From the NCBI GenBank assembly GCA_017544725.1, contig JAFYDR010000158.1:615-64614 (forward strand): a stretch of 64,000 nucleotides of DNA. Reading direction: 5' to 3'. This DNA comes from Kiritimatiellia bacterium (GTDB lineage Bacteria > Verrucomicrobiota > Kiritimatiellia > RFP12 > UBA1067). Positions 28,786-40,675 of the stretch are shown here, piece after piece. The translations under genes were made by a program, and so were the position numbers. Numbering within the stretch: position 1 is the first letter of the stretch; every line of letters starts with the position of its first letter. Below the pieces are notes generated by a model, which was not told the DNA's origin, searched no databases, and was given only the letters and a program-made list of their open reading frames with translations.

Positions 28786-31473
28786 TTACTCCCTCTCGAT
28801 GATCCGTTCCTGCTTATTGATTCCCCGAACCAAGCCATGCAGACTGTAGTAAGACCGCACGGTTTTTCCGTTCTCCCTGCGAATGGCAAGGATTTTGTTC
28901 TTGTCACTACCCACATCCTTCTCTGGTATCACCAGATAAACGGAAGCGCATTTCGTCTCCGGGTCAATCTCCACGCATCTGTCGTTCCCCGTCGAGGATA
29001 ACGGCAGTCCGATATTCTCGTACATCTTCGCCCCGGACCGGATTCCATAGGCGACGATCTCGACAATGTAGGGAAGCTGACTCCGCACACTTTCCATGCC
29101 GGATTGGATCTCGCGAATCCGTTGGGCGTTCGCCGACGATGCGCCTTTTGCGGACGGCAGCGTTTTCGCCGTCTGCGAAAGGTTTTGCAGACATTCCTGC
29201 ACCGCGCGGACTTTCCTGTCCGCCCGCAATGTCTGTCCGGTTGCCTCGGCCTTTTTCTGCGCCTGCTTGAGCAGATTCTCGCAGACGTCCAGCCGCTCCT
29301 TCCACTCCTGCTCGATGCGTTTTCTCTCCTGCTCGGCACGGGCCTCTTCTTCCCTGCGCTTCGCGTCGAGCCGATCCTTGAGATTTTTCCGGAGCGAGGC
29401 AAGCACACGCGACTCCTCAGGCGTCGCAACCAGTTTCTCGGCTTGATTCGCCGCCCCGTCAAAGGCCGCCGCGTCCAGCGATTCGAGCGCCGTCTCCGCC
29501 ACCTCCATCAACTGCCGCAACCGAGCCTTCCTGGCAACCTCCGCGATCGCCTGTTTCAAGCGTTTGTCGGCCTCTCCGATCCGATGTTCACCGGAGGCGA
29601 TTTCCGCCTCCTGCATGGGAAACCGGTAATCAGGGGCGTTCAGCTGCCTGAAGTCCGGGTATTTCGCGTACTGGGAAAAATTCGTGTACACGGCAAACAC
29701 CGCGCGATAGTCCGCCAGCAGCTCTGACTGGATCGTTTTGATCGCGTTCGTAAACGCTACGCAATACCCATCCGCCTCTTTCATCGCCCGGCGCATCCTG
29801 TCCACCTGCAATCCGGAATCGCATAACCTCGCCCAAAGATCGTTTCGTATCGAGTTCTCTGGCGTGATGTGCAACATCGGGAAATTCCACAGTCCCTTAA
29901 CCCGCTTCCGCACTTCCTCCCAATCATTGGCGCGTTGCGTTTCCGGATACTGCAACAGCTGTTCGATCTCGCCGGCAAGACGCTGATTCTCCCGTTCACA
30001 GTACCGCGCCGCACCGCAATACGCGCCATACACCATGCCGGCTAGTAACAGAATCGCCGCTGCGCGTTTGAGAAAGGTGAAGAAACGTTGCCTCCGGTGT
30101 ACCTTTTCAGCCGCCAACTCGTCGCAAGCCGCCGAAACGCTCTGGCGCACCCACTCCATATAATCGATGCCCTCTCCGGTGTCCACGTTGAATCCGTAAA
30201 GCACCGGGGCGAATGTGGTTTCCGCCTCTTGAGCGACATTGTCGGCAAGCTGTATAAGCGTATTGTCATCGCGGATCCGGGATGTTGTCCCGGTTTTGAT
30301 GACTTTCAGTATCTGCCGCATCCAGACCTCATCCACCTTCAGCCGCCCCCTCCACTTATCATGGGCAGCCTTCACATCATCGTCCGCTATCGTCGCGTTA
30401 CGATAGAGGATCTGCGTACGAGACTGGTTCAAGTTCCCGGGGTTGCCGACATACGCGAGACACCCAACCCTGAACGAATCTGCCGCCGCAATAAATTCTC
30501 TCAGAACCTGAAGCCGTTCCGTTAACACCGAACGGATAGCGAGCTGACGCGCGAACTCGTTACGCAACCGGAGATACTCCAGATATCGATTTTTCAATTC
30601 GTATAGAGCATCTCCCTTCCCCGCCACGATCCCACCGACCGTGAGCAAGAAACCGAAAAGCCCGTCCGACTCGATTGACGGCGGCACCGCGTTCTCGGAA
30701 TTCAGCTCGTTTACCGCAGAGACGCAAATAATCGGGACCTTATGATTCTGAACCTGTTGCATGAGGCTTTGCGCACCGCGTTCGCAGAGATACAAGGTCG
30801 GGCCACCAGTATTCTCAATCGTTTCCCGGACCAGATGCGTCTGGGTGAGGACCAGCAGCGATTTTCGGGCAAGCTCCGCGTCTTTTCTCAACAGCCGCCA
30901 GAAGGTATCCACCGAGTCCTCGAAGTTCTTCCGGAGAGCCTTTCCGGTACTGCCATCCGGATATGCTGCGGCGTTGATAAACAGGCAGACGAGCGTCGCC
31001 TCCTTCACGGCTTGGCGGATTTCCTCGACGCGGAACTCCCCGGAACTGGACACCGATCCACTCGCTGAGAGCAACGCATCATCCGCCGCAGCACCCGCCC
31101 CTGAATAGGAAGCACTCTCGCCGCCAAAGTCCACCGCGAACGCCTTGCGAATCTGTTCGCCCGAACAGTCCATCGTCGCCAAGTCAAAGATCGGCCGCGC
31201 ACCCGTATAAACCGTCCAGTGGAGCTGGGTCATCTCGTCCTCTCGGGTGTTGGCGAGCCACTCCCTGTTGTTACAAAGCTCGCTGTACTTCCTGTTCACC
31301 AGCTTCCTGGTTTCGTCGCTCTGCGGTTCGAGACGGAAACCGAGCGGCGCAGCAGTACCGCCCTCCTCCAGCAGCATATACTTCATGCCCAAGACGGAAA
31401 GGAATACGGTCTTCCCGCTTCGCTGCACCCCCAGAATAAACACCTTCGGAACTTTCTGGTTTTCTGTCGTCAT
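28786..31473 (-). CDS. Membrane-anchored TRAFAC-like P-loop GTPase, paralog A (long coiled-coil C-terminal region)
   Basis: G1 GVQRSGKTVFLS, G3-like MDCSGEQ, G4-position LVLTQTHL, G5-like ICVSAVN, conserved ESDGLFGFLLTVGGIVAG. One mid-protein TM (AAAILLLAGMVYGAYCGAA), then a helical/coiled-coil tail. Confidence 0.7.
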   Translation of the reverse strand: MTTENQKVPKVFILGVQRSGKTVFLSVLGMKYMLLEEGGTAAPLGFRLEPQSDETRKLVNRKYSELCNNREWLANTREDEMTQLHWTVYTGARPIFDLATMDCSGEQIRKAFAVDFGGESASYSGAGAAADDALLSASGSVSSSGEFRVEEIRQAVKEATLVCLFINAAAYPDGSTGKALRKNFEDSVDTFWRLLRKDAELARKSLLVLTQTHLVRETIENTGGPTLYLCERGAQSLMQQVQNHKVPIICVSAVNELNSENAVPPSIESDGLFGFLLTVGGIVAGKGDALYELKNRYLEYLRLRNEFARQLAIRSVLTERLQVLREFIAAADSFRVGCLAYVGNPGNLNQSRTQILYRNATIADDDVKAAHDKWRGRLKVDEVWMRQILKVIKTGTTSRIRDDNTLIQLADNVAQEAETTFAPVLYGFNVDTGEGIDYMEWVRQSVSAACDELAAEKVHRRQRFFTFLKRAAAILLLAGMVYGAYCGAARYCERENQRLAGEIEQLLQYPETQRANDWEEVRKRVKGLWNFPMLHITPENSIRNDLWARLCDSGLQVDRMRRAMKEADGYCVAFTNAIKTIQSELLADYRAVFAVYTNFSQYAKYPDFRQLNAPDYRFPMQEAEIASGEHRIGEADKRLKQAIAEVARKARLRQLMEVAETALESLDAAAFDGAANQAEKLVATPEESRVLASLRKNLKDRLDAKRREEEARAEQERKRIEQEWKERLDVCENLLKQAQKKAEATGQTLRADRKVRAVQECLQNLSQTAKTLPSAKGASSANAQRIREIQSGMESVRSQLPYIVEIVAYGIRSGAKMYENIGLPLSSTGNDRCVEIDPETKCASVYLVIPEKDVGSDKNKILAIRRENGKTVRSYYSLHGLVRGINKQERIIERE

Positions 31474-31540
31474 ATTCCTCTCTCTTCCTTCGAACCAAAA
31501 ATCAAACTACTCCCTGAAAACCATTCCTACCTGACCCCAT

Positions 31541-38926: not shown

Positions 38927-40675
38927 TCAACAACACCTGATCGCGATGATAACAACCAGTATGATCACGATAACAACAAAAATCCCACAGGACGTGTCAG
39001 AAGAAGGTTTGGGCTGCGGCATCGACTGATGATGAAGTTCCTTCAGCTTTTCCAAGCCTTCCTGGCATCGCTTGTATCGCTGTTTCAGATCTGTCATCGC
39101 GACCGAGACCAGATCCCTGTTTTCAGTCGCTCCACAAAGCCTACCGAGTTTCTCAAGACCTCCATCGATTTTGGATGCGATTTTCTGGAAATCATCCACG
39201 GCCTCCGGGAACGAAAATCCGCCTACGACTGACTCCGCCGCGGCAAGGCTTTCCTCCAGTTCCCCGACCTGATTCCGAAGCTTCCCCACCTTGTTCGCCA
39301 GCATCACGGAAATCATCGCCATGCCAGCCCGCACCCAGGCAACGCGATCCTCATACGGAGACCGCCGCAGGTCAATGCTCTCGTTAAACCCGAAGACCGC
39401 GTCCTCTCCGCTTTCCGGAAAGGACTTCATGACACTTGCGATCAAGTCTGTAACGTCCCGGTCGCGAATCTTGCTCTCCACCTCATCCTCTTCCTCGTCG
39501 GGACGAACCAGATTCACGCGCCCGTACGCGCAGAGTTTTTCATTCCACACCTCATCGATCCGCAGACGATCCTTCCACAGGTTCTCCGCCTCGCGGATGT
39601 CACCCTCCACGCGCGTGGTCGCGCGGTATTTACTGCCGGGAAACTTTTCTTTCAGATTCTCCGTATCCTTGAGGTAATCCAAACATCCCTTGCGGAAATC
39701 GGAAGCCGCTTGTGAAAACTTGCGCAAATGGAAAAGACGTTCTGGCAGAGGACTGCATAGCCAAAGGTGCCGTGCGACCTGATCGCGGGAACGGAGATAG
39801 TCATAATACAGGCCTTTCAGTTTCCCCAGCGGGTCTTTCTTCCCCGCCACGATCCCGCCGACCGTGAGCAGGAAACCGAAGAGTCCGTCCGACTCGATCT
39901 TCTCCGGTACCGCATTCTCGGAACTCGTCTCGTTCACCGCCGAGACGCAGATGATCGGAACCTTGCGACGCTCGATCTGCTGCTGGAGATGCGGCATCGA
40001 TTTTTCCAAGTAAAGGAAGGGACCTCCGGCGTTCCGGATCTCCTCACGAGCCAAATGAGTCTGCGTCAGCACAAGCAGACACTTCGAGGCGATTTCGGGG
40101 TGGCTGTTCAACAGATCCCAGTAGCAATCCGCCGCATCCTTCAAGCCTTGGTATTTCTCCGGATCCCGATCCGCCCCCTCCCGCAGCGCGGACACATTGA
40201 TGAAAAGGCAGACGAGCTTTGCCCGATCCACCTTCTCCCGCAACTCGTCCACGCGGCTGTTCCTTTGTGATACTTCACCGGCATCGGTTTTGAGAAGCGC
40301 GTCCGAATTGCCCCCGTCCCCCTGCGATTTCGATTCCCGGTTCAGGAAAGCATCCTTGATATCCTCCCCCGACCAGTCCGAGGTCGAGAGGTCGAATATT
40401 TTGCGCTTCCCCGTACAGACCTCCCAGCGCAATTCGGTGACCGCCCCCCTGACAGTCGCGCGCGGCCATCCGCCCCGCAACAGATGCTCGTACTCGCGAT
40501 TCATCAGCCCGAGCGTTTCTTTGTCCTTGGCGATCATCCGGAATCCCAAGGGCGCGACATTGCCACCGTCGGCGGACAAGGCGTATTTGCTACCCAGCAC
40601 CGACAGAAAAACCGTCTTCCCGCTCGACGGCATCCCCAGAATCACAACTTCCGGCATCCCATCATTTTCCGTCAT
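38927..40675 (-). CDS. Tail-anchored TRAFAC-like P-loop GTPase, paralog D
   Basis: GMPSSGKTVFLS, SDWSGED (D-x-x-G kept), LLVLTQTHL, ICVSAVN, ESDGLFGFLLTVGGIVAGK. C-terminal TM CGIFVVIVIILVVIIAIRCC. Confidence 0.7.
   Translation of the reverse strand: MTENDGMPEVVILGMPSSGKTVFLSVLGSKYALSADGGNVAPLGFRMIAKDKETLGLMNREYEHLLRGGWPRATVRGAVTELRWEVCTGKRKIFDLSTSDWSGEDIKDAFLNRESKSQGDGGNSDALLKTDAGEVSQRNSRVDELREKVDRAKLVCLFINVSALREGADRDPEKYQGLKDAADCYWDLLNSHPEIASKCLLVLTQTHLAREEIRNAGGPFLYLEKSMPHLQQQIERRKVPIICVSAVNETSSENAVPEKIESDGLFGFLLTVGGIVAGKKDPLGKLKGLYYDYLRSRDQVARHLWLCSPLPERLFHLRKFSQAASDFRKGCLDYLKDTENLKEKFPGSKYRATTRVEGDIREAENLWKDRLRIDEVWNEKLCAYGRVNLVRPDEEEDEVESKIRDRDVTDLIASVMKSFPESGEDAVFGFNESIDLRRSPYEDRVAWVRAGMAMISVMLANKVGKLRNQVGELEESLAAAESVVGGFSFPEAVDDFQKIASKIDGGLEKLGRLCGATENRDLVSVAMTDLKQRYKRCQEGLEKLKELHHQSMPQPKPSSDTSCGIFVVIVIILVVIIAIRCC

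Follow-up and report, generated by a model that had tools for sequence, protein, structure and literature searches.

Four tandem GTPase genes and a conserved partner gene

We analysed a 64,000-nt window of contig JAFYDR010000158.1, from a Kiritimatiellia bacterium (GenBank assembly GCA_017544725.1), whose minus strand carries four paralogous open reading frames (ORFs), here called A, B, C and D. An initial annotation, made from the sequence alone, had read them as four tandem paralogs of a membrane-anchored GTPase. This was borne out: the ORFs lie where that annotation placed them (Table 1), an alignment of A–D contains 97 invariant columns, and the family hidden Markov model (HMM) matches each of the four with E-values of 1e-209 to 1e-223. 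The genes belong to a co-directional block that runs from ~54595 to ~26011 with small gaps or overlaps between genes. The stop of C overlaps the start of B by 11 nt, and a gene for a caspase–HTH–FGS protein (31541–33685) separates A from B. The true start of C is probably the ATG at 38869, which would give a protein of 851 aa, as in P0003, a sequence 98.8% identical to C. D is identical to NCBI MBR4171231.1, a protein of a Kiritimatiellae metagenome-assembled genome (MAG); its NCBI label, 'hypothetical protein', is that of every component of the cluster in rumen and gut Kiritimatiellae.

The N-terminal similarity of the paralogs had been put at ~330 aa. The similarity holds, and the shared region is longer, ~470 aa, running through the sequence '...LYGF...W[VI][RK]'. 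In D, according to the alignment and an AlphaFold model, it consists of a G domain (residues 1–280) and a conserved helical bundle (282–470).

Upstream of D lies a gene that the initial annotation had overlooked and that is the most informative feature of the locus. It encodes a protein, hereafter the partner, whose N-terminal region bears the signature YTAWNGYxWQGC...FGG...GRDS, and the gene runs into D, with an overlap of 14 nt between its stop and the start of D. An HMM of this N-terminal region found a homologue directly upstream of the first GTPase gene in 11 independent cassettes (the window, L001, L004, L006/L010, L007, L008 (two), L009 and L011 (three), where L numbers denote related loci). 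Wherever a related locus has enough sequence, the first family GTPase is preceded by a partner homologue; in L009 the partner gene is cut by the contig end. The partner and GTPase genes overlap by 4 nt in L001 and L004 and abut in L011, where one of the three tandem cassettes has two GTPases behind a single partner. The pair is probably translationally coupled.

The G domain and its family

Motif conservation was counted over 42 family members, with residues numbered as in D (Table 1). All motifs quoted in the initial annotation (GxxxSGKT, MDCSGE/SDWSGE, LVLTQTHL, ICVSAVNE and ESDGLFGFLL) are present. In G1 (GxxxxGK[ST]), none of G14, G19, K20 and T21 varies in any of the 42 members, the four paralogs included. 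The switch-I Thr of G2 (T74, within WPxAT) is equally invariant (42/42). D100 of the G3 DxxG motif is found in 40 of the 42, the other two having Glu, and G103 in all of them. The same is true of E104 (DxxGE), which occupies the position of Ras Gln61 and follows MDCSG or SDWSG in the paralogs (42/42). SAV of G5 is conserved among the 42 members. Within the helical bundle, Arg313 of D ('PER' motif, window ~39737–39739) is kept in 41 of 42 members, and T354 and W447 are likewise conserved. A role for R313 as an arginine finger or as a contact to the partner is conceivable.

The AlphaFold model of D 1–470, built from a 42-sequence alignment, has a pLDDT of 90.5 and a pTM of 0.89. It contains a six-stranded G domain (1–280), followed by the helical bundle (282–469). 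The variable low-complexity insert described after G3 is real and appears as a disordered segment (115–131, pLDDT 53–58). Two strands, 81–88 and 91–99, lead straight into D100, giving the β2–β3 hairpin to Walker B. TQTH follows strand 199–204 and SAV follows strand 241–243, so the model puts them at the G4 and G5 positions assigned to them earlier. The invariant hydrophobic ESDGLFGFLL segment is modelled as the last G-domain helix (265–277, pLDDT ~97) and not as a membrane segment.

A Foldseek search of the Protein Data Bank (PDB) with the D model returned TRAFAC GTPases for all of the best 50 matches, with E-values of only 1e-3 to 5e-2. The lowest E-values belonged to Fzo1 (1.1e-3) and mitofusin-2 (MFN2; 1.9e-3), aligned over ~410–430 columns with TM-scores of ~0.2 and rmsd of 19–26 Å. 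The best TM-score was that of YcjX (TMq 0.32 over 408 columns, E 2.2e-3), itself a weak match; further matches included Era, EF-Tu, Toc34, SR-beta, GIMAP2, MnmE and Arf/Ral. A PDB sequence search with the family profile gave no match. With no Foldseek match below E 1e-3 and an empty PDB sequence search, the family has no close solved relative. Pfam, Foldseek, the motifs and HHalign agree that the modelled domain has a TRAFAC-type P-loop GTPase fold, as the initial annotation had proposed, and not a RecA/ABC-type fold.

The only relevant Pfam family for A–D is DO-GTPase1 (PF19975, cut-off 27 bits), which scored 34.9 bits for D, 26.8 for C, 20.2 for A and 13.8 for B, so that only D exceeds the cut-off; these matches span profile positions 1–99 of 271 only. 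An exhaustive HMMER search with the family profile against 1.84 billion representative proteins yielded 612 relatives at E ≤ 1e-3, of which ~18 representatives cover essentially the full 450-position profile. Among 57 remoter relatives, Pfam detected DO-GTPase2 in 44 and DO-GTPase1 in 24. HHalign of the family against relatives mostly matching DO-GTPase2/1 gave a probability of 100% (E 2.9e-39, 265 columns). On the strength of the Pfam matches, the HHalign result and the DxxGE motif, we assign the G domain of A–D to the DO-GTPase clade by sequence. The description 'uncharacterised' in the initial annotation was too strong, since this clade is already in Pfam (PF19975/PF19993) and a computational description of it appeared in 2020 (PMC7159879).

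Members of the family are few and taxonomically confined. The three related genomes with organism names are all Kiritimatiellae MAGs, two of them from ruminant gut (yak omasum and sheep rumen). A word-indexed protein search with the GTPase found 2 relatives, and the family surfaced through the exhaustive HMMER search; word-indexed searches with the partner found 0 relatives by sequence and 1 by profile. Neither PADLOC defence models nor NCBIfam gave a meaningful match for the GTPases or the partner. IMG/VR contained one relative only, a distant DO-GTPase-like ORF (L015, IMGVR_UViG_3300014205_007114, 7641–8894, E 2.7e-8) with no partner gene, and so gave no evidence of phage carriage.

The N-terminal region of the partner

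The partner family gave no Pfam match beyond coiled-coil noise, and neither GAP1 nor TagF was matched in it, 12 homologues included. The AlphaFold model of the partner N-terminal region (pLDDT 83.8, pTM 0.83) shows a β-β-α-β-β-β-α unit followed by a second α/β unit. Its Foldseek matches were led by TagF over the whole length (E 2.4e-3 to 5e-3, probability 0.77–0.96, TMq 0.28–0.38). Weaker matches, at noise level (E 0.05–0.6), were to PAS domains and to the longin domains of Mon1–Ccz1 and FLCN/FNIP. Longin and Roadblock domains, whose fold is PAS-like, are established as binders of GTPases (PMC3521125), which is why we propose that the partner may bind the G domain. Zhang et al. 2012 do not link TagF to DENN/longin domains, and that connection was rejected.

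Age of the copies

Over the shared 470 aa, A and C are 67% identical in protein sequence and every other pair 44–47%; the corresponding DNA identities are 69% for A and C and 52–54% for the others. At identical residues, third codon positions agree in a fraction of only 0.46–0.61, putting synonymous sites near saturation. The longest DNA repeats within the array are 131–300 nt long at 63–82% identity, and no repeat of more than 24 nt between paralogs exceeds 82%. In a neighbour-joining tree without bootstrap, A–D and their orthologues form one clade in which D is basal, followed by B and then A/C; it is this single clade that points to tandem expansion in this lineage. A metagenome contig from a distinct organism (L003) carries an orthologue of C (68%) followed by an orthologue of B with its FGS domain (73%). 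These comparisons indicate that the four copies arose by lineage-specific tandem expansion and that the duplications are old. The earlier proposal that the family diversified in situ stands in this form.

A and C had also been named as potential recombination partners because of a 23-nt run that they share. The run is indeed exact at both sites, with no such match in 100 shuffles. It might suggest a recently duplicated, actively recombining array that swaps C-terminal halves through tracts of this kind, all the more as the C-terminal modules vary between copies and the FGS domain of B resembles those of nearby genes. We regard such an array as highly improbable. The 23 nt are P-loop codons and lie in a stretch with 79% DNA identity; the low DNA and third-position identities and the short, diverged repeats speak against recent exchange, and both the C–B order and the FGS fusion of B pre-exist in a distinct organism. 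Recent gene conversion between the paralogs is ruled out by the codon-level divergence.

Membrane anchors and C-terminal modules

The C-terminal halves of the four proteins had been described as unrelated. The FGS domain of B and the tail anchor of D are indeed distinct, whereas A and C share both a transmembrane (TM) segment (A 461–517 with C 622–678) and a post-TM domain of ~145 aa (A 501–645 with C 705–850, E 4.5e-32). Beyond this domain, A carries a ~250-aa coiled-coil and β-rich extension; a TM segment followed by a long coiled coil had been correctly recognized in this protein. For B, two TM segments and an FGS domain had been proposed. The FGS domain is clear; the number of TM segments is one or two, residues 482–500 being the sole stretch above the hydropathy threshold.

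Comparable variation is found elsewhere in the family. Each full-length member is predicted to have one strong TM segment beyond the conserved region, at residues 455–725, and the tails that follow are variable in sequence and 200–700 aa long. Residues 709–891 of A recur as the C-terminus of family member P0010, and an FGS domain is present in P0015 as well as in B. Compared with the FGS domains of the four local caspase–FGS proteins, that of B is 57–68% identical to three and 35% identical to the fourth, whose protein contains LysM. In L011 (9084–11609) a family GTPase carries, fused at its C-terminus, the W-rich (znf403) repeats that window gene 26011–27222 encodes. With tails shared among members and with neighbouring genes, the 'swapped C-terminal modules' are a property of the whole family, not a matter of four unrelated halves at this locus. 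DnaJ_CXXCXGXG, the zinc-finger type encoded by the same window gene, was also found in 9 other family relatives.

Neighbouring genes in the cluster

The cluster holds five caspases and five FGS domains (Table 1). The core caspase-like protease is encoded directly upstream of the partner and shares only 24–28% identity with the caspase domains of the caspase–FGS proteins. The same arrangement is found in 6 of the 10 cassettes with enough upstream sequence (the window, L006 (L006/L010), both cassettes of L008 and two of the three in L011). In the caspase–HTH–FGS protein, a PP-binding domain (PF00550, 4.2e-11; residues 484–548) with a GADSLD serine motif lies inside the FGS domain (residues 423–709); it is uncommon for an acyl-carrier domain to sit within an FGS fold. 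Among themselves, the three flanking caspase–FGS proteins have caspase domains that are 51–82% identical. One of these proteins has a TM segment and LysM ahead of its FGS domain, which is therefore probably periplasmic.

Downstream of A lie genes for a predicted lipoprotein, a secreted LA_2272-type surface-repeat protein and a secreted protein with W-rich repeats. Homologues of the lipoprotein are found downstream of the GTPase in L006/L010, L008 and L009, and the LA_2272-type protein has homologues behind the GTPase or the lipoprotein in L004, L006, L007, L008, L009 and L010.

The upstream block consists of six minus-strand genes (44491–49982). Of its two AAA+ proteins, the one with Vps4_C matches katanin p60 end to end, and no MIT domain was detected in it. 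The reading 'two Vps4 ATPases' was ruled out, as the second AAA+ protein has its nearest match in the D2 domain of p97/Cdc48. In L006 and L008 the caspase–partner–GTPase unit is preceded by homologues of both AAA+ proteins and of the coiled-coil proteins; L010 has the Vps4_C-type AAA+ only, and L004 and L007 the Cdc48-like AAA+ only. Around the pair, the recurrent genes beyond the caspase encode two AAA+ ATPases and two or three small coiled-coil proteins. Among the small coiled-coil proteins, those encoded at 45792–46397 and 46415–47140 are distantly paralogous. A C-terminal 'LDxLYxKF...DP' motif is conserved in the 201-aa and 241-aa proteins and their homologues and degenerate in the 204-aa protein. 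With relaxed Pfam settings, Snf7 was matched at E 0.04–0.06 only, in 2 of 7 small coiled-coil proteins, and three PDB profile searches with these proteins gave no ESCRT-III match. We have not adopted an ESCRT-III label, the Snf7 and Vps60 matches all being sub-threshold.

The initial annotation had connected the GTPases to the caspases and to an ESCRT block. The former connection is supported, in that caspase and AAA+ linkage is conserved across independent loci; the ESCRT part is weak in view of the Snf7 E-values and the Cdc48-like second AAA+.

A promoter scan gave nothing above shuffles, and the intergenic gaps of the GTPase array contain no terminator-like hairpin; the sole intergenic terminator candidate on the minus strand lies after 26011. 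Outside the cluster, the minus strand encodes a protein with Schlafen AlbA_2, HATPase_c_4 and Fic-like_C domains (11271–12872).

Table 1. Features of the GTPase cluster, in window coordinates; residue numbers refer to the encoded protein.
Feature	Position (nt)	Strand	Size or residues	Description and evidence
Paralog A	28786–31473	−	895 aa	G domain, helical bundle, TM, post-TM domain, long coiled coil, small β-rich C-terminal domain
Paralog B	33850–36324	−	824 aa	G domain, helical bundle, hydrophobic hairpin or TM, FGE-sulfatase/FGS domain
Paralog C	36314–38887	−	857 aa	G domain, helical bundle, ~160-aa extra helical insert, TM, post-TM domain
Paralog D	38927–40675	−	582 aa	G domain, helical bundle, short helical linker, C-terminal tail anchor
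Region common to all paralogs	D 39266–40675; A 30064–31473; B 34915–36324; C 37478–38887	−	~470 aa	
Conserved motifs in D			G14–T21; T74; D100–E104; T204–H207; S245 onwards	G1 G14-x4-GKT21; G2 T74 (WPxAT); G3 D100-x-x-G103-E104; G4 T204-Q-T-H207; G5 S245-A-V
23-nt run	31409–31431 and 38805–38827	−		Encodes P-loop GVQRSGKT of A and of C
TM segment of A	30007–30063	−	471–489	Hydropathy
Hydrophobic hairpin or TM of B	34825–34929	−	~466–500	Hydropathy
FGE-sulfatase/FGS domain of B	33868–34551	−	592–819	PF03781, 1.8e-46
TM segment of C	36938–36994	−	~632–650	
Tail-anchor TM of D	38939–38995	−	561–579	Hydropathy
Partner protein	40662–42812	−	716 aa	~200-aa N-terminal α/β region, coiled coil, TM (~564–582), low-complexity tail
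Core caspase-like protease	42809–44527	−	572 aa	Stop overlaps partner start by 4 nt
Caspase + HTH_25 + FGS with acyl-carrier insert	31541–33685	−		Interrupts GTPase array
Caspase–FGS proteins	23879–25849, 50154–51866, 51917–54595	−		Flank the cluster
Predicted lipoprotein	27989–28777	−	262 aa	LAGC lipobox; 8 nt downstream of A
Secreted LA_2272-type surface-repeat protein	27371–27982	−	203 aa	NF047436, 4.6e-16
Secreted W-rich repeat protein	26011–27222	−		~30-aa repeats and C-terminal CxxCxGxG (DnaJ-type) zinc fingers
AAA+ with Vps4_C	44491–45768	−		Vps4_C 26.9 bits (cut-off 21.3)
p97/Cdc48-D2-like AAA+	47188–48423	−		Closest to D2 of p97/Cdc48, 1.9e-86
Small coiled-coil proteins	45792–46397, 46415–47140, 48420–49034	−		
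Multi-pass membrane protein	49086–49982	−		Three or four hydrophobic segments

Comparison with known systems

DO-GTPases ('double GTPases'; Kaur, Burroughs, Iyer & Aravind 2020, eLife) are TRAFAC GTPases whose Walker B contains a conserved Glu; 38% of their systems contain two paralogous GTPases and 60% of members have N-terminal zinc ribbons (PMC7159879). GAP1, made of N1 or N2, M and C domains, is encoded downstream or fused, a third component is GASH in the GAP1-N1 type or FNIII repeats in the GAP1-N2 type, and the DO-GTPase–GAP1 pair is stated not to be exchanged (PMC7159879). Like DO-GTPases (PF19975, PF19993), the proteins described here have a TRAFAC G domain with DxxGE and occur as more than one paralog per locus (four here). 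They also resemble them in their frequent TM segments, extracytoplasmic domains past a C-terminal TM, variable fused modules and association with FGS domains in the PVC superphylum.

The differences concern both composition and sequence. No Pfam match to GAP1 was obtained in A–D, the partner, two caspases or 12 partner homologues (E ≤ 0.1 or E ≤ 1), or in the other cluster neighbours (E ≤ 0.01 or E ≤ 0.001), and Pfam scans found no GASH or FNIII component in any cluster gene. N-terminal zinc ribbons are absent from A–D, in which the P-loop begins 14–20 residues from the N-terminus with no Cys pairs before it. G4 reads TQTH here and TQxD in the relatives, and the helical bundle of ~190 aa is family-specific. 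The constant companions are an upstream partner with a new domain, together with a caspase, AAA+ proteins, a lipoprotein and an LA_2272-repeat protein.

Other membrane-linked GTPases offer partial parallels. YcjX is a stress GTPase encoded next to the membrane protein YcjF, and its structures (PDB 6NZ4 and 6NZ5) are reportedly those of Tsai et al. 2019. It gave the best TM-score (0.32, over G domain and helical region) and, as here, is paired with a membrane protein. It is, however, soluble, with a different partner and gene neighbourhood; there was no YcjX sequence match in the PDB profile search and no Pfam YcjX match. Mitofusin/Fzo1-type GTPases, which are activated by dimerisation, gave the lowest Foldseek E-values and share the succession of G domain, helical bundle and membrane anchor. 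Membership of the dynamin superfamily is not supported: A–D have no Pfam dynamin-superfamily match at E ≤ 0.1 and no dynamin-type motifs. YcjX, encoded in psp operons, is counted in the DO-GTPase family and has a predicted membrane-stress role (PMC11237479).

The tight coupling of a GTPase gene to a gene for a PAS/longin-like partner recalls SR-beta/SRX, Rab7/Mon1–Ccz1, Rag/FLCN–FNIP and MglA/MglB. SR-beta is among the G-domain Foldseek matches, and Mon1–Ccz1 and FLCN/FNIP are among the weak partner matches. No sequence similarity to these longin/Roadblock pairs was found and the structural matches are at noise level; the parallel is an analogy of logic rather than established homology. TagF, a post-translational regulator of the secretion system known as type VI (T6SS; PDB 6IZ8, 9T0N), is the top but weak structural match of the partner N-terminal region. 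Unlike in TagF systems, no T6SS genes are found here, and no action of TagF on a GTPase is known.

Proposed mechanism and alternatives

We propose that A–D arose by old, lineage-specific tandem duplication of a gene for the nucleotide-switch subunit in an envelope-associated multi-gene system restricted to Kiritimatiellae, and we give this explanation, with the mechanism that follows, a probability of roughly 0.55. Each protein has a cytoplasmic G domain, then the helical bundle, a predicted membrane anchor and a differing putative sensor or output module. D is tail-anchored only, with no extra module. B carries an FGS domain from the same local pool as the caspase–FGS proteins, C a further helical insert on the cytoplasmic side and a domain past the membrane, and A the same domain with a coiled coil and a β-rich domain. 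Because D is basal, module-less and coupled to the partner gene, it may be the core subunit, with A–C as alternative receptors. The single partner protein would bind the G domain through its PAS/longin-like N-terminal region and act as a regulator or platform. Nucleotide-dependent homo- or hetero-dimerisation of G domains, following the 'double GTPase' logic and modelled on the structural neighbours Toc34, GIMAP, MnmE and mitofusin, could then build a membrane-proximal complex. Such a complex might recruit or activate the adjacent caspase by proximity and, through it, engage the AAA+/coiled-coil block and the caspase–FGS proteins. A perturbation of the envelope, or an invader such as phage, would act as the trigger.

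The caspase/AAA+ cluster has the look of a system for defence or surveillance of the cell envelope. The hallmarks of conflict systems include variable modules, caspases and FGS domains (PMC7159879), and we base this reading on the rarity of the family, its narrow taxonomy, the multi-copy cassettes, the module shuffling and the caspase/FGS content. Several points weigh against the proposed explanation. Neither a phage, toxin nor nuclease hallmark was found in the cluster, which makes a housekeeping envelope role conceivable, and obvious mobile-element genes do not flank the cluster in this window. DO-GTPases are known from comparative genomics alone, and since GAP1 is absent, rules inferred for DO-GTPase systems may not transfer. 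The structural matches of the partner are weak (best E 2.4e-3, TM 0.30–0.38), and its role as a GTPase regulator is conjectural. Finally, the specificity Asp of G4 is replaced: A–D read TQTH and P0002 reads TQSY, and the Asp position is His in 20, Gly in 8, Asp in 4 and Tyr in 3 of the 42 members.

With this residue missing, GTP specificity is not assured, and the G domains could be changed or inactive, serving as ATP or general NTP switches or as non-hydrolysing scaffolds. The remoter relatives, which keep TQ[AS]D, make the loss stand out. Yet the P-loop, the Thr of switch I, DxxG, the Glu matching Ras Gln61 and SAV are invariant or nearly so, and A–D retain all of these catalytic motifs. Such invariance argues for purifying selection on nucleotide binding and hydrolysis, and we consider altered or inactive G domains quite unlikely. 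A housekeeping remodeller of the mitofusin/atlastin/BDLP type, which would tether, fuse or cut membranes with an ESCRT-III/Vps4-like module during vesicle formation, division or envelope repair, seems a little less so, though still unlikely. Its case draws on the Fzo1 and mitofusin-2 E-values, on the layout of G domain, helical bundle and TM anchor, on the Vps4_C AAA+ and Snf7-like coiled-coil proteins as conserved neighbours, and on the tie between YcjX of the DO-GTPase family and psp (ESCRT-III superfamily) operons. The mitofusin TM-scores are only ~0.2, however, and no Pfam dynamin or mitofusin match was found; the Snf7 similarity is sub-threshold, the PDB profile searches are empty and the second AAA+ is Cdc48-like. 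Rarity, multi-copy state, variable C-termini and the five caspases and five FGS domains also fit conflict systems better.

More speculatively, the cluster might be an undescribed membrane-remodelling machine of the PVC superphylum, in which GTPase and longin-like regulator would recruit ESCRT-III-like polymers, the AAA+ proteins would act on these and caspases would exert control; we think this improbable. The companion idea, by analogy, that such a machine would follow the same GTPase/longin/ESCRT/AAA+ logic as eukaryotic endomembrane traffic, with the paralogs as receptors for different envelope cues, is just as doubtful.

Significance

The DO-GTPase clade was already known and computationally defined; what is new here is the GAP1-free partner and the linkage to caspase, AAA+ and envelope proteins. 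A DO-GTPase can be separated from its supposedly inseparable GAP1, and in this family it is coupled to an unannotated partner domain. The definition of DO-GTPase systems is thereby widened to companions of other kinds, here a caspase, AAA+ ATPases of the classical type and proteins of the periplasm or surface. The partner and D form a compact, testable pair for probing the workings of such GTPases. Should the longin-like and ESCRT-like readings prove right, the cluster would represent eukaryote-like membrane-trafficking logic in a PVC bacterium.

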